In this document: positions 2,970 through 19,687 of the stretch, one piece after another
Layout: every line of letters starts with the position of its first letter
Position numbering within the stretch: position 1 is the stretch's first letter
Origin: Gammaproteobacteria bacterium
Lineage (GTDB): Bacteria > Pseudomonadota > Gammaproteobacteria > Thiohalomonadales > Thiohalomonadaceae
NCBI GenBank assembly: GCA_041690535.1
Contig: JAWLHA010000048.1
Location: forward strand, 1 to 32,000
DNA: 32,000 bases
Reading direction: 5' to 3'
The notes under the pieces: generated by a model
Seen by the model: the letters and a program-made list of their open reading frames with translations, nothing else
Databases searched by the model: none
What the model was told of the DNA's origin: nothing
Program-made: the position numbers and the translations under genes

Positions 2970-3755
2970 TCACTTGCGGTAACGCTCCACCCACATGGCG
3001 GTGGCACCGGCCACCGCCGCCGGCATGACGAGGAAGTTCACCAGGGGGATCATGGTAGCCAGGAGCGTGGCACCGCCGAAACCGAGAGCGAGCAGGCGCT
3101 TCTCACCGAGTCGCCGGCGCTGTTCCTTCCCTTGCAGGCCGTGGTTGCCCATGGGGTAATCGGCATACTCCACCGCCATCATCCAGGCGCTGAACAGCGC
3201 CCACAATAGGGGAGCGAACAGATTGACGCCCGGGATGAGAAAGAGCAGGAGCAGGGGAATTGCTCTGACCACGAAATAGCCCAGCTTGCGAATCTCGTCC
3301 AGGACGACGGCCGGGGCCTGCTTGAGCGCATCCGCCAAGCCGGCCTCCGGGGGCCCACCGCCGGTCAGCTGACGCTCCACCGCCTCGGCCAATACCCCGT
3401 TGAAGGGTGCGCCGATCAGATTGGCCACGATGGAGAAGGTGAAGAACACCAGGATGGCCGCCGCCAGGCCGAACAGAAGCCACAAAAGCCAGCTGAGCCA
3501 GGCCAGCCACTCCGGCAGGTCCGGGATCAAGCGGTCGACCAACCCGCCGAACTGGCCCGCCAGTGCCCACAGCAACAGGGCGAACAGGCCCACATTGATG
3601 GCGAGGGGGACGAAGACGAAGCGACGCAGCCCCGGCCTGTTGAGCATTCCGAAGCCGCGCAGCAGGTAACCGGCCCCGGCAAGGGCAGAAACGGGGGCCG
3701 CAATACGAGATTCGAGGGGGGGCGGTGTCGCTCCGCCAGCGGGTACAGAATTCAA
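2970..3755 (-). CDS. cysZ: Sulfate transporter CysZ
   Basis: 261-aa multi-TM ORF with CysZ signature stretches: GLRRFVFVPLAINV, GAPFNGVLAEAVERQLTG, LWALFSAWMMAVEYADYP, AVAGATAMWVE. Confidence 0.9.
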   Translation of the reverse strand: MNSVPAGGATPPPLESRIAAPVSALAGAGYLLRGFGMLNRPGLRRFVFVPLAINVGLFALLLWALAGQFGGLVDRLIPDLPEWLAWLSWLLWLLFGLAAAILVFFTFSIVANLIGAPFNGVLAEAVERQLTGGGPPEAGLADALKQAPAVVLDEIRKLGYFVVRAIPLLLLFLIPGVNLFAPLLWALFSAWMMAVEYADYPMGNHGLQGKEQRRRLGEKRLLALGFGGATLLATMIPLVNFLVMPAAVAGATAMWVERYRK

Positions 3756-12144: not shown

Positions 12145-13077
12145 CTATCCATTAGGGTGAGCTTTCCAGTTCAGTGACTCACTAATGCCCAGCCGGTATG
12201 GCGTTGCTTTCAGGCCGAATGCGGATTCGATCTTGCTGCTGTCAAAACGATAGTCGAAGTCCAACTGATACATCATCTCTTCGTTTTCCCGAAGCACGGG
12301 CACGAAAATACCCATTATTCTTATCATCCAGCGCGGCGCTACCCACAGTTTGTAAGGCTGTTCGGCCAGTTCACACGCCAGGCGGACGAAGGCCGCTCCA
12401 GTCAATAGCTCGTTGGTGGTCGGCAGGTGCCAGGTCTGGCCAAACGCCTCTTTCGAACGCCCAAGCACAGCCACTGCACGGCCCGCATCCGGTGTGAAGG
12501 TGAAGGTGTGAATCGCATGGGGATTGCCTATCCATCGCGGCGCTTTCCCGGCCTTGATGCGCTCGAACACCAACGCATGAGGCAAGCTGTTCACCGCTCC
12601 AGGCCCGTAGAAATCCGCCGAACGCACGATCATTGCCTCCAGATTGCCGTTACCCATTTCGTCGAGCAGCATCGATGCAATCTTTGCCCGGACTTCGCCC
12701 TTCTTGCTGATCGGGTTATACGGTGTTGTCTCCGTCATTGCGCCGTCTACTCGTCCATACGCATAGACGTTATCGAAGAAGACGAGGCGAGCGCCATGCC
12801 GCTTGCAGGCATCAATTACATTGCGCATCACACGTGGCCATTGCTCCTGCCAGACAGATGCGTTGTACTTCAGGCCTGCCACGAGATAAACAACTTCGCT
12901 CCCCGAAACCGCGCTGGCCGTGGCCTTGGCATCCAACAGGTCGGCGGAAACGACCTCATCGTTCGGATTAACCCGGCGAGGATTCCGGCTTACCTGTCGG
13001 ATGGCAGGAGAAGTGGGAGCCAGCGCCCGGGATAGCTCTTGGGCAATCACGCCGTTGGCGCCGAGTATTGTATGCAT
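12145..13077 (-). CDS. NAD(P)-binding atypical SDR / NmrA-epimerase-like oxidoreductase
   Basis: The ORF track extends to 13194, but that extension runs into the MITE at 13157-13365. The ATG at 13077 gives MHTILGANGVIAQEL, a Rossmann GxxGxxA motif. GC is lower than in the flanking core genes. Confidence 0.8.
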   Translation of the reverse strand: MHTILGANGVIAQELSRALAPTSPAIRQVSRNPRRVNPNDEVVSADLLDAKATASAVSGSEVVYLVAGLKYNASVWQEQWPRVMRNVIDACKRHGARLVFFDNVYAYGRVDGAMTETTPYNPISKKGEVRAKIASMLLDEMGNGNLEAMIVRSADFYGPGAVNSLPHALVFERIKAGKAPRWIGNPHAIHTFTFTPDAGRAVAVLGRSKEAFGQTWHLPTTNELLTGAAFVRLACELAEQPYKLWVAPRWMIRIMGIFVPVLRENEEMMYQLDFDYRFDSSKIESAFGLKATPYRLGISESLNWKAHPNG

Positions 13078-13156
13078 TGTTGTCACGTCCCGAGATTGTG
13101 TTTTAATGTTGCCGAAGGGCTCTCTCGCCCCGTCTGCGGCCAAGCGTACAAAAGAA

Positions 13157-13365
13157 GTAACTACTCGCCCCCCGACTGCCTCCCGCTTATGCAAATAGTA
13201 AGATTAGGAAGCAGACTCACCGCACTCGATCCTCGCTCCTTGTCCTGTTCGTCATTCCCGCGAAGGCGGGAATCCATAAGGCACCCAGCCCAATACCCTT
13301 GGCCTCTGAAGTCCAGCACTGGATTCCCGCCTTCGCGGGAATGACGGACGGGTGTGAGTAGTTAC
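13157..13365 (+). mobile_element. 209-bp MITE (family 1, copy A) with 8-bp target site duplication
   Basis: Terminal inverted repeats are gtaactactcgc ... gtgagtagttac. Internal long inverted arms are gtcattcccgcgaaggcgggaatcc / ggattcccgccttcgcgggaatgac. The direct repeat caaaagaa flanks it at 13149-13156 and 13366-13373. Confidence 0.85.
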
Positions 13366-13598
13366 CAAAAGAACCTTAACTTCTCGGCGTTGGCTGCAGC
13401 AAATCCTTATGTCTTCTGCCATGGAATCTCACTGGATTTGATGTGCCACCCACTGTGGCCCGCGTGAACGAATTCCCTCTGGCGCGGTCAGACGCTCCTC
13501 TTCGCCCGCAGCAAGTCGCTGACCACAGAAAGGACAGTGGGTTACTCCCACAGCGGTAGACCAGATCGTGTCGCCCGCGTTTTCGAGGACAGGGATGT

Positions 13599-13677
13599 CC
13601 TGATGCCAAGCTCTGCCAAGGAAGGGCGCAACGCAACCTGACATCGGATGGCGCGCAGTCTTATGCGACGTTTAGTC
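13599..13677 (-). repeat. Degenerate attC-like repeat ending the cassette array
   Basis: The minus strand reads GACTAAACGTCGC...GTCAGGTTGCGTTGCGCCCTTCCTTGGCAGAGCTTGGC. This is homologous to the attC at 16638-16705, but the 3' GTTRRRY box is replaced by ATCAGG. It overlaps the rhodanese stop codon. Confidence 0.5.
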
Positions 13678-14064
13678 GCAGCCACAGCCTGCCGCCTTCC
13701 CACTAGACCCCGAGCCCTCCGTCTCATGTCCATCCCTTTTCCACCAATCCAGACCGCCGATGAGCTCTTTGACTCGAAAACCGATCCTTGTCATATTCAG
13801 GGCGCCCTTGGTTGAGGCGTTGCAACCGATTCCATCGCAGTAGGTGACAACCAGCGCCGTTCGATCAAGACTTGCAGTTGTTTCCTCGTTCATCGTTCTA
13901 TGGGGAATATTGATTGCCCCCGGGATGTGCTCTTTCTGATACGCCTCCGGTGAACGGGAATCGATGACGATTACGTTCTCCCCAGACTCCAAGGCAACCT
14001 TCAAGTCCCAAGAATCTGTCTCAAAGGCGAGCTTGTTTTCGTAGTGTCTCATTTGTTCGTCCAT
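13672..14064 (-). CDS. Rhodanese-like domain protein (cassette 5)
   Basis: The rhodanese fold motifs are VIDSRSPEAYQKEHIPGAINIP and the active-site loop YCDGIGCNAS. The C-terminus is Cys-rich (AAGCGCD). The ATG at 14064 is preferred over the track's GTG at 14079. Confidence 0.85.
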   Translation of the reverse strand: MDEQMRHYENKLAFETDSWDLKVALESGENVIVIDSRSPEAYQKEHIPGAINIPHRTMNEETTASLDRTALVVTYCDGIGCNASTKGALNMTRIGFRVKELIGGLDWWKRDGHETEGSGSSGKAAGCGCD

Positions 14065-14086
14065 GGATCTGTGTCTCACCTACTTT

Positions 14087-14145
14087 GCATAACATCGAAG
14101 CATTTATCTGCTGTGCGCAGCATGGCAGACAAATGCCTGTTGAAC
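14087..14145 (-). repeat. attC site (59 bp) of cassette 4
   Basis: The minus strand reads GTTCAAC-N45-GTTATGC. The inner stem is GCATTTGTCTGC / GCAGATAAATGC. R'' fits RYYYAAC and R' nearly fits GTTRRRY. The next cassette's ATG lies 23 nt downstream of R'. Confidence 0.65.
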
Positions 14146-14274
14146 CAAGCCGCTCATCCAGTTGGCACACTGTATCAATAGGGAAATGGTTTCTGAGAGG
14201 CAGGCAGTGGATGGCGTCTGGGGCAAAATGGACTCACGGCTAGCTCCTTGCGTGCTGCGTCACTGCCTTATTCT

Positions 14275-14748
14275 TTAATCGTTTGTGGATTTAGCACCAA
14301 CTTTCCATACCCCAATCACTGCCGCTGCTATTGTAAGCAAAACGTTTACTGCCCCAAAGATTGACTCCTGCATATACGCGGCCTTGTACTCTGGAAGGAG
14401 TTGGCCTTGTGCAAGAGAAAGAACAGCTATTTCTGTTGCCGAGGTTACGGCGGGCACAACGAAGAAATGTGCGTTAATAACGACCAGCATGATGAGCAGT
14501 AGCTTGAGCTGGAAAAATCTCTGTTTCAAACCATAACGTTTGTAGCCCATCCAAGCGCCGGTAATGGCAAGTAACCACATGCCGGAAAGTGTGAGGACGT
14601 TGGTGCCGGTGCTAATGATTTTTCGCCCAAAGGCGATGTTCTCCAGGCTGGCATCTTCGATAAGGGCAGAGATGACTATGAAAGTGAGAATGCTCCCCAG
14701 AAAAATTACTAGACCGCCAAGATGGACCAACTTTATTCCGCGATTCAT
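14275..14748 (-). CDS. Integral membrane protein, DUF2269-like (cassette 4)
   Basis: 157-aa ORF with four predicted TM helices. The RBS GGGGGAG precedes the ATG. The family assignment is by recollection of the DUF2269 pattern only. Confidence 0.7.
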   Translation of the reverse strand: MNRGIKLVHLGGLVIFLGSILTFIVISALIEDASLENIAFGRKIISTGTNVLTLSGMWLLAITGAWMGYKRYGLKQRFFQLKLLLIMLVVINAHFFVVPAVTSATEIAVLSLAQGQLLPEYKAAYMQESIFGAVNVLLTIAAAVIGVWKVGAKSTND

Positions 14749-14767
14749 TTCTCCCCCTTGTTGAGAC

Positions 14768-14830
14768 GACTAACGCCTATTACAGCCGAGGAAGGCCCCA
14801 TCGCGGCCTGACTTCGGCTGGAGCGGCTTC
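14768..14830 (-). repeat. attC-family repeat lacking its own R'' box (ORF-less cassette remnant)
   Basis: The minus strand reads GAAGCCGCTCCAGCCGAAGTCAGGCCGCGATGGGGCCTTCCTCGGCTGTAATAGGCGTTAGTC. It is homologous to 16638-16692 and ends in the R' box GTTAGTC. It begins directly after the R' of the preceding attC. Confidence 0.6.
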
Positions 14831-14889
14831 GTCCAACGCTAGCGCTCATCCGCGCGGCTTTTTGCGTCGGCTGTAGCGCCTTGTTGGGC
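14831..14889 (-). repeat. attC site (59 bp) of cassette 3
   Basis: The minus strand reads GCCCAAC-N45-GTTGGAC. R'' is the exact complement of the GTTGGGC that opens this cassette at 15358-15364. It has GCGCT/AGCGC L-box pairing and a CCG(A)CGC/GCGCGG stem with a bulged A. The ORF's TAG stop lies inside it. Confidence 0.75.
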
Positions 14890-15339
14890 GCCACTGCTGG
14901 AAAGAAGCCGCGGGCGGGACAGAACCGCTTCCAGCTCTTCTCTGGCACAGAACGGCCAAACGTCGAAATCTCCAGCTTCGAGGAACTGCTCCCATCGCTT
15001 TTTCTTCATCCGTTCCCACCAACCGAAGGTGAGCAGATTCACAGGCCAATTCACGATTTGGATGAACGAGTATTCAGGCCACAGATACTCTTGGTTTGAA
15101 TGCAAAAAGGCGACCCATCGTGCTATTTCCTTCCGCCCCGCGGAACCGCGACCCAGGTCACCCTCCACATAATGGGTCCGGAGGTCATCATAGAGTTGCC
15201 ACGCCATCTCCTTTACAGCAACGGCCCCCCTATCACGCCAATCTACATCCACTTCGTCCAGATCGTCGTTCGTGATGCGCCCCGAAACATACTGACGAAG
15301 CGCCTCCGCAAGGCAATTTCTTGACTCCCTATCAATCAC
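14839..15339 (-). CDS. Hypothetical protein (cassette 3)
   Basis: The ORF track starts at a TTG that lies inside the attC R' box. The GTG at 15339 is preceded by AAGGAGGAG at good spacing. No family was recognised. The protein is Trp-rich (WPEYSF, WPVNLLTFGWWERM). Confidence 0.7.
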   Translation of the reverse strand: MIDRESRNCLAEALRQYVSGRITNDDLDEVDVDWRDRGAVAVKEMAWQLYDDLRTHYVEGDLGRGSAGRKEIARWVAFLHSNQEYLWPEYSFIQIVNWPVNLLTFGWWERMKKKRWEQFLEAGDFDVWPFCAREELEAVLSRPRLLSSSGAQQGATADAKSRADER

Positions 15340-15357
15340 AGCACGCTCCTCCTTGCC

Positions 15358-15462
15358 GCCCAACGCGCGGCGCAGGCGACCGCAAAAGCGGCCCAGCCAC
15401 TGCTTGAAAGTACGCCAAAACCCGCGCCGCTTTTGCGGGTCGCCTGGAGCCGATGGTTAGCC
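15358..15462 (-). repeat. attC site (105 bp) of cassette 2
   Basis: The minus strand reads GGCTAAC-CATCG-GCTCCAG ... CTGCGCC-GCGC-GTTGGGC. A 20-bp stem CAGGCGACC(C)GCAAAAGCGGC / GCCGCTTTTGCGGTCGCCTG carries one extrahelical C. R' fits GTTRRRY exactly. Confidence 0.8.
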
Positions 15463-15465
15463 ACA

Positions 15466-15960
15466 CTACTCGGCGTAAAGGCGTTCATTGCGACCCTTAC
15501 TGGCTTTTAAGATGCGAACAAATGATGCTGATCGATCTGGTGAATGACAGACTTCGTGAAGGAGCGTGAGATCATGGTTCTTGTAATAGACCATTTCCCA
15601 GCCGCACCCCTGCTGATTGAAGCGCTGTTCCGCTTCATAATCCCAAGCATTGCCGCCAGTTGAAAATAACAGGAAGTCGTAGTTGCCGGCCGTGCCAAGC
15701 TCGTTTTCCGACTTTACTTTGGCATAATCGGTGTATGAGTAGGTTCTTCCAATATCGAAACCGACCATACCAGCCAACGCTCGATACCGTTCAATGTTTT
15801 TGTCGTCTGTCACTAGCGTGTAGACAGCGCCTGTGTACTTTGAATCAGCGCCAGCACTAGCCGTGCCCCCCGACGAGGCTGTAGTGGATTGTTGGTTTAC
15901 GCTATCGCCACAGCCCGACAGAGCCAACACTGCGATGCAAAACAGGATTGTGTTATTCAT
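15466..15960 (-). CDS. Lipoprotein, unknown function (cassette 2)
   Basis: 164-aa ORF. Its signal peptide ends in the lipobox LALSGC. The RBS GGAGAAAAG precedes the ATG. Confidence 0.8.
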   Translation of the reverse strand: MNNTILFCIAVLALSGCGDSVNQQSTTASSGGTASAGADSKYTGAVYTLVTDDKNIERYRALAGMVGFDIGRTYSYTDYAKVKSENELGTAGNYDFLLFSTGGNAWDYEAEQRFNQQGCGWEMVYYKNHDLTLLHEVCHSPDRSASFVRILKASKGRNERLYAE

Positions 15961-15979
15961 CTTTTCTCCAGAGCACCGG

Positions 15980-16640
15980 GTAGGTCAGGGCCTTACGGCC
16001 CGTTCCCCCCTAAGAACCGTACGTGCGAGTTTCCCCGCATACGGCTCAAGCCCTTCGTAAGCCGGGGCCAGCCGACTCAGCCGCTCACTTCCCGTATACT
16101 ACGCACAAACAAAGGCCTTCTGAAGCGGAGTCTTGGTTAGGGGCGGAAAAGGGGTCGGTGGCGGAAAAGGGGTCGGTGACAAACGGTAATCCAAACAATT
16201 CGCATTTGTCACCGACCCCTTAATTACCGATAAGACACCCCAACAGCATCTAGCCACCTCGCGGTGACCCACCTGGCTACGGCCTTCCCATGCCAGGAGC
16301 CCATCGGGGCTTCCCGAGTTCTACGACGTATCTCTTCCTGCATGCCACGGCCTGAGGACTCCGCCGGATCTCCACACCCTCGCCAAGGCGGGTGCTTCTG
16401 TGTTGCCTTCGGTGCACGTTAAAACCCTCGGCATCCGGATTGAGCTTTCCGAAGCTGTGCCAGCACTTCAGGGTGCGCGACCACCCCTACGGCCTACAGG
16501 ATTCTCTGTCCACGCTTAACCTGCTTTGTTCGTGATTCCACACTCCGCCACAGGTCCAAGACTCGATACGGGTGGTTGGCTAGTCCTTACCCGACGGGGA
16601 CTTTCACCCCGCAAGATACGCCGAGCTTTGCTCGGCGCGA
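15980..16640 (-). mobile_element. ORF-less group II intron (class C-like) inserted at the R' end of an attC
   Basis: On the minus strand there is a 5' hairpin CCGAGCAAAGCUCGG, the domain I motif GGGUGAAAGUCCC, a canonical 34-nt domain V, and a domain VI with a GUAA loop, a bulged A and a ...ACCUAC 3' end. No ORF of 60 aa or more lies in domain IV. The 5' end reads (A)UCGCG rather than GUGYG, so the boundaries are good to about 5 nt. Confidence 0.85.
16014..16047 (-). ncRNA. Group II intron domain V (catalytic hairpin)
   Basis: The minus strand reads GAGCCGUAUGCGGGGAAACUCGCACGUACGGUUC. It has the AGC catalytic triad, the 2-nt bulge and a GAAA tetraloop, and is 34 nt long, as in the consensus. 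Confidence 0.92.
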
Positions 16641-16705
16641 TAACGCCAAGCTCAGCCGTGGAAGGCCGCATCGCGGCCTGACGTCACTGGAGCGACGTGT
16701 TAAGC
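16638..16705 (-). repeat. attC site (68 bp) of cassette 1, carrying the intron at its R' box
   Basis: The minus strand reads GCTTAAC-ACGTC-GCTCCAG...GTCAGGCCGCGATGCGGCCTTCC...CTGAGCTTGGC-GTTATCG. R'' overlaps the TAA stop and is the exact complement of GTTAAGC at the cassette start (17436-17442). Confidence 0.8.
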
Positions 16706-17416
16706 GGTCGATTCACGTTCATACGCCTTTATTGCATCGATCACAAATTCCAACTTCGCCATAGGAATTCTGGCCCTTCGGGTACTATCATCAGAACCAT
16801 TTGCCGATAACTCCTGGGCACCAGGGAAATCTTTAATGGCATCTTCAGTTGACTTCGTTTTCGACCATATGGTTAGCGTGTACCGCCCACCGGTTCTAGT
16901 ACTTAATGCCAATCGGTAGTCCCCAATGCCGAACCTAACCGCACGTTCGTTCTTTGTGACATGGTGGTCTATGTTTAGCTCTTCTAGGTACGGCACAACT
17001 TCTGTATAGATTCGCTGAGAGCTCTTCGTGTTCTGTGCGTCTTCGGCCGCTTTCACATCTTGATCGTCTGCAACTTCTATCTCTTGTGCATCTGGATGAT
17101 AGACACGAACAAAATCAGAGACAGCGTCAACTAAGGTCTCGTTTCCATCCCAAAAGTACTCGCCATCGAGGCGCGAGTTATCCAGGATCGTGTGAAGCAT
17201 CTGCTCTACCGCCGTCGCATCAAGGCCAGTCCAGGCCCTGATGATCGATATCTTGACTGGGCTCACGGTGCCCAACAATTCACGCTCCCTTCGCTCCGGA
17301 TGGTCAGTAGTAATCCCGATCTTCTTTATCGGCGGAAAGGAAGCGTCCCCGTCGAACTTCTGCAACTTCGCAGAGAAAAGCGGTGCAGCAATGTACAAAG
17401 TGTTCTGTGCGTTCAT
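16700..17416 (-). CDS. T5orf172/MUG113 (GIY-YIG superfamily)-like N-terminal domain protein with an unknown C-terminal domain (cassette 1)
   Basis: 238-aa ORF. The stretch IKKIGITTDHPERRERELLG...AVEQMLHTILDNSRLDGEYFW matches the T5orf172 pattern (KIGxT..RR..EL...E..LH......GEWF). The C-terminal ~110 aa was not recognised. Confidence 0.7.
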   Translation of the reverse strand: MNAQNTLYIAAPLFSAKLQKFDGDASFPPIKKIGITTDHPERRERELLGTVSPVKISIIRAWTGLDATAVEQMLHTILDNSRLDGEYFWDGNETLVDAVSDFVRVYHPDAQEIEVADDQDVKAAEDAQNTKSSQRIYTEVVPYLEELNIDHHVTKNERAVRFGIGDYRLALSTRTGGRYTLTIWSKTKSTEDAIKDFPGAQELSANGSDDSTRRARIPMAKLEFVIDAIKAYERESTA

Positions 17417-17435
17417 ATTCTCCTCTCACCAGAGC

Positions 17436-17550
17436 GCTTAACAGTTGATTAGACCGACCATCCATTAACCGGAACATTCCGGTATCGGGCCATAACTTCC
17501 GCCAGACTGCCACAAATTTCCATTATTGGACATGCTGAATACTTCCATTA
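17436..17550 (-). other. Array-proximal junction, possibly an attI-like site
   Basis: The minus strand ends CTAATCAAC-T-GTTAAGC, a simple-site-like L/R box pair. It is preceded by three direct TAATGGA repeats (17461-17467, 17519-17525, 17544-17550) and the 16-bp palindrome ACCGGAACATTCCGGT (17468-17483). No integrase gene is adjacent. Confidence 0.3.
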
Positions 17551-17958
17551 ATCGACATCCGGCGCATCCCCGAGAATCCGGTCGGTGAGGCCGAGGTCGG
17601 CGGCAACGGCATACGGGACGATCCAGGCGCGGCGCGTGGTGTCCCAGGTACCTCCGGCGGCCTTCACCGTCGCGCGCAGCGCGGTTTCGTCGTAAGCAAT
17701 CCGCACGTGCACCCGCTGATTGGGGCGGGGAAAGAGGCGCCGCTCCTGCGGCGTGCGGGTCGCCCTGGGGCCTTCATCGATGATGAGTTCCACGGTGGTG
17801 AACCGGCGATCACTCTCTGCGTCGTGGCGGTATCGGACAATAAGAAGGCGGTCGCCGAAGCGGCGCTGTAGACGCTTGGTGCCCGGCTGGCCGGGGCGGA
17901 GCGGTTTGATAACATCCATGTGCATACCTCTCGGATTCCTTTCCAGGGATAGTGTCAT
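17548..17958 (-). CDS. Hypothetical protein. The C-terminal motif resembles the small domain GxWDxxxxxWxVP found in phage/plasmid proteins.
   Basis: 136-aa high-GC ORF. The more likely start is the ATG at 17919 (MDVIKPL), preceded by GAGAGG. The C-terminus reads AAGGTWDTTRRAWIVPY. Confidence 0.6.
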   Translation of the reverse strand: MTLSLERNPRGMHMDVIKPLRPGQPGTKRLQRRFGDRLLIVRYRHDAESDRRFTTVELIIDEGPRATRTPQERRLFPRPNQRVHVRIAYDETALRATVKAAGGTWDTTRRAWIVPYAVAADLGLTDRILGDAPDVD

Positions 17959-19453: not shown

Positions 19454-19687
19454 GTAACTACTCACCCGCATCCGTCATTCCCGCGAAGCCTGCCCCCGAG
19501 AGCTTTAATCGGGGGGCGGGAATCCAGTGCTGGACTTCAGAGGGCCAAGCGTATTGGGCTGGGCGCCTTATGGATTCCCGCCTTCGCGGGAATGACGAAC
19601 AGTACAAGTAGCGAGGATTGAGTGCGGTGAACCTGCGACCGCATCCTAATTCCATAAGCGGGAAGCAGTCGGAGAGCGAGTAGTTAC
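19454..19687 (-). mobile_element. 234-bp MITE (family 1, copy B, inverted relative to copy A) with 8-bp target site duplication
   Basis: Its reverse complement aligns with 13157-13365 over the full length. It has the same gtaactactc termini. The direct repeat cgcatttc flanks it at 19446-19453 and 19688-19695. It carries a 26-bp internal insertion (19489-19514) that is absent from copy A. Confidence 0.85.

Follow-up and report, generated by a model that had tools for sequence, protein, structure and literature searches.

The stretch of DNA analysed here (the window: 32,000 nucleotides of contig JAWLHA010000048.1, GenBank assembly GCA_041690535.1, from a gammaproteobacterium of the Thiohalomonadaceae) carries five short minus-strand open reading frames (ORF1-ORF5), set among imperfect palindromes of the type that bounds integron cassettes (attC sites). 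GC content in this island (window positions 13,000-17,500) is 0.51-0.57, against 0.62-0.72 in both flanks. The flanking genes are housekeeping: queF, smc, zipA, ligA, and an epimerase gene on one side; a 136-aa ORF and ctaA on the other. The segment from 13598 to 17442 very probably is an integrase-less, eroding array of integron cassettes, a cluster of attC sites lacking an integron integrase (CALIN), in an ordinary chromosomal neighbourhood (smc-zipA-ligA / ctaA).

The array extends along the minus strand from G17442 down to about 13598 (Table 1). Its order is cassette 1, attC1, an intron remnant, cassette 2, attC2, cassette 3, attC3a, attC3b (no R'' and no ORF), cassette 4, attC4, cassette 5, and attC5 (no R'). 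All five ORFs listed in an earlier inspection of the letters alone (the sequence-only reading) are present, and equal the gene calls of a 99.8%-identical public contig (GCA_041687195.1, locus L003), in which cassettes 2-5 stand in identical order.

attC sites and cassette boundaries

Sites were identified with two covariance models. R1 is a family model built from 14 external attCs only, and was run over the whole window with no filters. R2 is a general model built from 27 diverse external attCs, including co-oriented sites that R1 found in external arrays. The R2 alignment pairs 93% of cells, with 35 double-change cells compared with 6.6 in shuffles (0/500 shuffles as high), counts that favour structure because the 3' register of each sequence was picked for maximal pairing. 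With R1, attC1 scores 75.1 bits (E 1.5e-22), attC5 50.7 bits (2.1e-14), and attC3b 47.5 bits (2.4e-13). With R2, 14889->14831 (attC3a) scores 35.8 bits (E 3.1e-07), and attC1 scores 27.7 bits (E 3.7e-05). The next-best match in 32 kb reaches 9-15 bits over both models, and at most 9.3 bits with R2. Model support thus covers four of the six sites (attC1, attC5, attC3b, and attC3a), all on the minus strand.

Three of these sites are copies of one repeat family (13601-13645, 14771-14815, and 16641-16685), in which the palindrome of the attC1 type is GTCAGGCCGCGATG. R1 detected no further members of the attC1 family in the 32 kb.

Several features establish polarity. At attC1, R1 gives 75.1 bits on the minus strand versus 18.7 on the plus strand. 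Unpaired extra bases lie on the minus-strand 5' arm, as in canonical attC top strands: a C in attC1 L'', and two bases in attC2. The cassette leaders, 14-25 nt in length, contain a ribosome-binding site only. Together with the orientation of intI in a related integron (locus L012, described below), these features identify the minus strand as the attC top strand. The opposite arrangement was also considered, in which the five ORFs are reverse-oriented in a plus-strand array and the intron is a canonical bottom-strand insertion. It was rejected because of the strand-asymmetric scores, the 5'-arm extra bases, the L012 intI orientation, and 5' untranslated regions that, at 14-25 nt, are too short for promoters.

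The start of each cassette was compared with the complement of its own R''. Agreement is 7/7, 6/7, 7/7, 4/7, and 6/7 for cassettes 1-5. Cassette 1 starts GTTAAGC (17442->17436), the exact complement of its R'' GCTTAAC (16705->16699); cassette 3 starts GTTGGGC (15364->15358), the exact complement of GCCCAAC (14889->14883). With the intron removed, cassette 2 starts GTTA+GCT, which matches GTTAGCC (the complement of GGCTAAC) at six of seven positions. An integron integrase would recombine the folded attC bottom strand at G|TT, and a crossover at this point would explain the complementarity between start and own R'' in cassettes 1, 2, 3, and 5.

Much of the sequence-only reading holds at this level: the two exact heptamer pairs; the two sites of exactly 59 bp (14831-14889 and 14087-14145, each 59 nt); the stop codons inside attC (TAA of ORF1 in attC1 R'', and TAG of ORF3 in attC3a, 14831-14889); and the extrahelical bases in the stems, which prove to be on the minus-strand 5' arm. 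The RYYYAAC...GTTRRRY boxes that it assigned to every site are present at some, strict RYYYAAC at only three sites and strict GTTRRRY at only three boundaries. Its degenerate last site, placed at 13599-13677, actually spans 13598-13666, and its list omitted a sixth site, the attC1 homologue attC3b (14768-14833). There are indeed five ORF cassettes. They are not simply five single-gene cassettes, however: the array also includes the R''-less attC3b and a chimeric intron remnant, and cassette 4 has an extra 130 nt and no start/R'' match.

The attC1 family in other genomes

A 21-base pattern from the attC1 family identified 15 loci (L004-L018) from very different phyla. These share a common architecture, RYYYAAC-ACGGC-GCTCCAGCCGAC-GTCAGGCCGCGATGCGGCCTTCC-TCGGCTGAGC-TTGGC-GTT. 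Among the 15 genomes, homology breaks off precisely at the variable R'' bases and at G|TT, as predicted for cassette boundaries. With R1, arrays of 2-6 co-oriented attCs were found in five of the loci (L005, L007, L012, L017, and L018).

In Tepidicella baoligensis (L012), a family attC lies 0.5 kb from a divergent integrase (TIGR02249, 488 bits; cut-off 265). The leading cassette of this integron opens with GTTGGGC, and its attC has the R'' GCCCAAC. A metagenome-assembled genome (MAG) from the Sedimenticolaceae (L010) contains a partial intI in the same arrangement with a family attC. Because it stands beside an integron integrase in L012 and a partial intI in L010, the attC1 family is a genuine integron attC. 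The Tepidicella integron and the window share this attC family, the polarity, and the start/R'' complementarity of the first cassette; they differ in that the former has an intact TIGR02249 integrase 0.5 kb from its first cassette, whereas the window has none.

The family is nearly invariant across Deltaproteobacteria, methanotrophs, Halomonas, Ignavibacteriota, Saccharibacteria, and Actinomycetota MAGs. The first L012 cassette (3289-3660), with its family attC, encodes a 110-aa protein that by eye is QacE-like (small multidrug resistance).

Absence of an integrase

A tblastn search of the window with IntI1 (query validated by its 60% match to the L012 integrase) returned nothing at E<=10. A hidden Markov model (HMM) made from IntI1 and the L012 integrase, run against all six-frame pieces of the 32 kb, gave a best E of 1.8; the same search found the integrase fragments in five control loci. 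No major ORF contains a Phage_integrase domain. The integrase-free span beside the array is 13.5 kb on the left and 14.5 kb on the right.

A CALIN is taken here as at least two attC sites within 4 kb, with no integrase within 4 kb. The window contains four model-supported sites between 13598 and 16705, and the array is classed as a CALIN because neither tblastn nor the six-frame HMM search found an integrase in 32 kb. The arrangement of a complete integron, an adjacent intI with attI and Pc, is absent from the window. The array resembles the IntegronFinder definition of a CALIN in having co-oriented attCs spaced at under 4 kb, each placed behind a short ORF that lacks a promoter, and in the lack of a nearby intI. 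Nothing essential differs, and half of the window sites are eroded or incomplete: attC1 (intron in R', fold lost), attC5 (R' and fold lost), and attC3b (no R''). The sequence-only reading took the array for a relic or satellite of a sedentary chromosomal integron, a type marked by a large array of highly similar attCs and a species-specific intI at a fixed locus. Three of the six sites do belong to one family, although that family is spread over many phyla.

The central claim of the sequence-only reading, an attC array without a tyrosine recombinase in the 32 kb, is thus supported by the integrase searches, by the external covariance models, by the link to the L012 integrase, and by cassettes of the ORF3 family elsewhere (see below). 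The array is a genuine CALIN, partly eroded, and the chimeric intron remnant is its most unusual feature.

Cassette cargo

The cargo had been described as entirely uncharacterised, which does not hold for three of the five ORFs. ORF1 contains a T5orf172/MUG113 domain (Pfam PF13455, 32.4 bits; PF10544, 31.3 bits), and weakly matches the PADLOC candidate PDC-S57 (E 2.7e-8). ORF5 is a rhodanese (Pfam PF00581, 60.6 bits), with NCBIfam matches to PspE/GlpE-like families that are sub-threshold only. ORF4 resembles DUF2269 (Pfam PF10027, 25.9 bits, below the 28-bit cut-off). ORF2 encodes 164 aa with a lipoprotein-like signal, LALSGC. Profile searches identified no family for ORF2 or ORF3.

Homologues of ORF3 number at least 240, at 57-94% identity, and come from several phyla. 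In two loci (L141 and L142), the homologues are cassettes bounded by unrelated attC sites, among small co-oriented ORFs. The ORF3 family is a widespread, unannotated, cassette-borne protein. An 80%-identical homologue lies between tolB and pal in the Tol-Pal operon of a metagenomic contig (L140, 2623-3129).

Cassette 4 is unusual in that a 130-nt non-coding stretch (14146-14274) separates the ORF4 stop codon from attC4. Because of this extra non-coding DNA, and because start and R'' match at only four of seven positions, cassette 4 may be two fused cassettes.

Table 1. Coordinates of the array features in the window, listed in minus-strand order
Feature	Position	Strand	Description
Low-GC stretch	17443..17547	-	Upstream of first cassette junction; three TCCATTA-type direct repeats; GC drop begins here
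Cassette 1	16644..17441	-	Begins TTAAGC after G17442; ORF1 16700-17416, 238 aa
attC1	16638..16705	-	R'' GCTTAAC, L'' GCTC[C]AG, L' CTGAGC, R' GTTA then intron bases; central stem eroded
Group IIC intron, 5' part	16229..16640	-	First 412 nt (D1-D3 and start of D4); in attC1 top strand at CGTTA|
Filler inside intron remnant	16087..16228	-	About 140 nt; 24-nt inverted repeat 16167-16190/16198-16221; 18-nt tandem repeat 16135-16170
IIB-like intron, 3' end	15975..16086	-	D5-D6 15975-16049; ends CCCGGU, directly before GCTCTGGAGAAAAG-ATG of ORF2
Cassette 2	15364..15974	-	First bases TTA (16643-16641) split off by intron remnant; ORF2 15466-15960
attC2	15358..15462	-	105 nt; R'' GGCTAAC, R' GTTGGGC; long stem, two extra 5'-arm bases
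Cassette 3	14837..15363	-	ORF3 14839-15339, 166 aa; GTG start; AGGAGG ribosome-binding site
attC3a	14831..14889	-	59 nt; R'' GCCCAAC, R' GTTGGAC; overlaps ORF3 3' end; R2 match at exactly these coordinates
attC3b	14768..14833	-	attC1 homologue without R''; no ORF (remnant cassette); R' GTTAGTC
Cassette 4	14093..14773	-	ORF4 14275-14748, 157-aa membrane protein, plus 130 nt non-coding
attC4 (candidate)	14087..14145	-	59 nt; R'' GTTCAAC, R' GTTATGC; 12-bp stem, atypical spacers
Cassette 5	13667..14092	-	ORF5 13672-14064, 130-aa rhodanese
attC5	13598..13666	-	Eroded attC1-family copy; R'' GCATAAG, R' replaced by ATCAGGA; array end

A chimeric group II intron remnant

The 680-nt gap at 15961-16637, which the sequence-only reading left unexplained, is group II intron sequence. 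Rfam identifies intron domains (D) 1-4 at 16604->16348 (RF02005, 108.3 bits) and D5-D6 at 16049->15975 (RF00029, 67.7 bits), both on the minus strand. There is no ORF between the domains, and no remnant of a reverse transcriptase or maturase was found in the window.

The 5' part belongs to group IIC. Its junction, GGCGTTA|TCGCGCC, lies inside attC1 R', so that R' reads GTTATCG and the intron begins UCGCG. Thiodictyon and Catenovulum plasmid relatives have the same GTTA junction. A candidate exon-binding site (EBS1), UAACG at 16421->16417 in the conserved loop UUUUAACG, pairs with the intron-binding site (IBS1) CGUUA. The 5' part is 94% identical to positions 1-412 of an intron in L030, after which homology ends abruptly. 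The L030 intron is full-length (1.93 kb), is flanked on both sides by co-oriented cassette ORFs, and has a 462-aa intron-encoded protein with 38-44% identity to plasmid-borne class C proteins (tblastn).

The 3' part (about 110 nt) has a different affinity: 84% identity to the Enterobacter cloacae pIMI-5 intron, and 94% to an intron in L039. The pIMI-5 intron is of the Rfam D1D4-7 type, with an LtrA protein that contains an HNH domain. The cognate D5-D6 of the IIC introns in L030 and L023 score only 41 bits and end ...GCGAGA. The IIB-like end CCCGGT|GCT also is present upstream of the IIC intron in L050 and L057. A blastn-short search with D5 matched only the window itself. At its 3' end the remnant may stop at GGT|GCT or at |GGTGCT, an ambiguity of 3 nt. 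The filler between the two parts (16087..16228) matches nothing in any compared locus.

Because the 5' homology stops at 412, and D5-D6 match the type found in pIMI-5, L039, and L050, the 666-nt element is, to judge from these homologies, a fusion of two intron remnants of different classes around about 140 nt of filler.

Relationship to known introns

Published IIC-attC introns, such as S.ma.I2, enter the bottom strand of attC at R'' (TTGT/T) and run counter to the cassette genes (PMC3001079 and PMC7923331). One top-strand IIC case, from E. cloacae, is cited in PMC7923331, which also reports IIB introns in sense orientation, and a CALIN with IIB fragments.

The window intron resembles the IIC-attC introns in being a IIC ribozyme targeted to an attC hairpin with a short IBS1, in arrays and CALINs: it matches RF02005 at 108 bits, and has the CGUUA/UAACG pairing inside attC1 R'. 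It differs in that it starts UCGCG and occupies the top strand, at R' (CGTTA/), in the orientation of the ORFs. It is not filed as an IIC-attC member because the IIC part is in the top strand, the lineage is mostly sense-oriented, and both strands are used (see below). The E. cloacae top-strand intron (2012, cited in PMC7923331) shares, by its description there, the cassette orientation and the attC top strand; in the window only a truncated 5' part survives.

For the IIB-like part there are two parallels in PMC7923331. The Halorhodospira halochloris CALIN is an integrase-less array with 5'-truncated IIB fragments that retain only D5-D6. In the TSL2 array, the IIB1 intron UHB.I2 is located just after an attC in cassette orientation, and has a non-canonical ...GU 3' end (CCCGGU in the window). 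In contrast to both, the window IIB-like end is fused to 412 nt of a IIC intron, with no remnant of an intron-encoded protein.

A scan of metagenomes found at least 120 loci related to the window IIC intron. Among the matches listed, most 5' exons have GTTA or GTTG as their last bases; 56 introns begin with TCGCG and 44 with GTGCG. Again among the matches listed, the intron is divergent from intI in five of five loci with an integrase fragment, and introns of the UCGCG type run in the direction of the upstream ORF in 30 loci and against it in 5, with another 15 loci unclear. With a rigid one-bulge template, the strand could be called in 14 of 93 cases: 13 top versus 1 bottom. Strand calls from arm lengths in minimum-free-energy folds were dropped as too noisy with long variable loops; the upstream coding strand and the intI orientation proved more informative.

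Evidence is about evenly poised on whether the window intron represents a truncated member of a large, widespread environmental IIC lineage that homes mainly into the attC top strand at CGTTA|, in R' and co-oriented with cassettes, with apparently non-canonical termini (5' UCGCG, 3' ...GAGA) in roughly half of its members.

Other features of the lineage are of note. In one GCGCGCGCC-type attC family, the intron occupies the top strand in some loci (L046, L062, L096, and L109) and the bottom strand in others (L001, L068, and L124, including the Thiodictyon plasmid). Tandem or nested IIC intron copies are present in L051, L060, L062, L083, and L086. In L086 and L051, the new copy starts right after the previous 3' end (...CGCGAGA in L086; ...CCAGAGT in L051), and L062 has three D1 copies beside an intI fragment. 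The introns at L030 1692-3620 and L023 884-2916 have the apparent ends UCGCG...GCGAGA rather than GUGYG...AY, with boundaries taken from reconstruction of the attC R'.

History of the array and rival explanations

The following history would account for these features. Each unit consists of an ORF that has a ribosome-binding site but no promoter, and of the attC behind it. After the array had formed, a group IIC intron would have retrohomed into the attC1 top strand, three bases 3' of the integrase crossover; entry at this point and in gene orientation is suggested because EBS1 UAACG pairs with CGUUA. A IIB-like intron presumably also entered at about the same place, and a later deletion would have brought the initial 412 nt of the IIC intron together with the final approximately 110 nt of the IIB-like one. 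The array probably is now largely frozen, because no integrase is nearby and three of the six sites are damaged. Expression of the cassettes, if any, would come by read-through from an upstream co-oriented gene; a sigma-70-like promoter was sought on the minus strand of the array, and none was found. Movement, if any, would require IntI acting in trans on the better-preserved attC2, attC3a, and attC4.

Several points weigh against reading the locus as an eroded CALIN with this history. Both models derive from one attC class, rather than being IntegronFinder's attC model. Neither R1 nor R2 matches attC2 or attC4 (attC4, 3.2 bits with R2), although the R2 length window may be limiting for the 105-nt attC2. 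A loose template (AAC...GTT with nine L-box pairs) is not specific, finding 18 matches in the window and about 17 in shuffles; with no such excess, these matches were discarded as support for attC2 and attC4. The start of cassette 4, GTTAGTC, agrees with the complement of attC4 R'' at only four of seven positions. The integrase search covered 32 kb, and an intI may lie elsewhere in the genome. Finally, the order of events and the present inactivity are read from sequence, and the order and mechanism of intron fusion in particular are reconstructed.

For attC2 and attC4, support is indirect, and weak for attC4; it comes from their position between stop and start codons, from stem stability, and from complementarity with validated neighbours. 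attC2 folds with -30.7 kcal/mol (1/200 shuffles as good), and its R' GTTGGGC is the exact complement (7/7) of R'' GCCCAAC of attC3a; attC4 R' GTTATGC agrees with the complement of attC5 R'' GCATAAG at six of seven positions. Folding was better than in shuffles for attC2 (z -3.06), attC3b (-2.80), attC4 (-2.41), and attC3a (-2.28), and no better for attC1 (z -0.99) and attC5 (z +1.99).

The poor folds of attC1 and attC5 might suggest that the palindromes are generic hairpins, of the terminator or repetitive extragenic palindrome type, and the ORFs ordinary chromosomal genes. The non-specific template scan and an unrelated repeat adjoining the array point the same way. This explanation is extremely improbable, given that the same element lies beside integron integrases and in cassette arrays of unrelated phyla, with homology ending at G|TT; that scores are strand-asymmetric (75 versus 19 bits); that the attC family is nowhere else in the 32 kb; and that the GC content of the island is distinct. 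More serious is the proposal of a live satellite array, in which the IntI of a complete integron elsewhere in the genome still excises and reshuffles cassettes in trans. Four sites (attC2, attC3a, attC3b, and attC4) form more stable folds than shuffled sequences do (z -2.3 to -3.1), attC3a scores well with R2, and a single attC family accounts for three sites, as it would in sedentary integrons. Moreover, no exact copy of ORF1 is on record for the sister assembly, which could reflect cassette turnover. We nevertheless consider this unlikely: attC1 and attC5 have lost their fold, attC5 lacks R' and attC3b lacks R'', intron DNA splits attC1 R', cassettes 2-5 keep an identical order in the 99.8%-identical assembly, and there is no intI in the 32 kb.

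The eroded CALIN thus remains the preferred reading of the array, and a separate question is whether the 666-nt element within it might be a functional ORF-less group II intron, spliced with a maturase from elsewhere. D1-D3, D5 (AGC triad, AC bulge), and D6 (bulged A) all are recognisable, the orientation is sense, and there is pairing between EBS1 and the 5' exon. The break in the sister assembly falls within the 5' part, at window position 16327, which suggests related copies in that genome. A functional group II intron, however, has cognate D1-D6 and GUGYG...AY ends. Here the halves come from two lineages of different classes (RF02005 type, and D5-D6 of the HNH-bearing D1D4-7 type), the ends are UCGCG...GGU (UC...GU, not GU...AY), homology to the full-length relative stops abruptly at 412, and none of about 120 related loci among the matches listed has this chimeric architecture. 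Function of the element as an intron is therefore highly doubtful.

Neighbourhood of the array

Exact-protein look-ups for ORF1, the 136-aa upstream ORF, and CtaA gave no match. The stretch upstream of the first cassette junction (17443..17547) may be what is left of an attI, or else just the site of insertion. Its TCCATTA-type repeats, TTCCATTATTGGACAT, TTCCATTAATCGACAT, and ATCCATTAACCGGAAC (17460-17558), overlap the stop codon of the 136-aa ORF, and could be integrase-binding repeats of a former attI.

At the distal end, a minus-strand ORF at 13376-13644 (71-86 aa, no family) lies between the R'-less attC5 and an element like a miniature inverted-repeat transposable element (MITE). This may be a sixth cassette ORF that has lost its own attC. 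The MITE-like element, in which 33-nt inverted arms flank a CATTCCCGCGAAGGCGGGAATCC core, is present at 13157-13365 and 19515-19687. These copies, about 175 nt long and 89% identical to each other, point in opposite directions, and one abuts the distal array end.

Implications

CALINs are common, and this array provides a well-resolved example of how arrays decay: R' or R'' disappears, stems stop pairing, introns invade, and the introns themselves then erode. Its attC family is nearly unchanged in genomes that range from Proteobacteria through Saccharibacteria and Actinomycetota, and so records how widely cassettes move.

An abundant IIC lineage apparently prefers the sense (top) attC strand, an orientation with a single earlier report for IIC introns. 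Such a preference would change the expected effects of introns on cassette expression and on integrase recombination, the latter because insertion splits R' three bases from the crossover. If the lineage does behave in this way, its introns would be transcribed in cassette operons and could splice out, unlike the bottom-strand introns that block expression.

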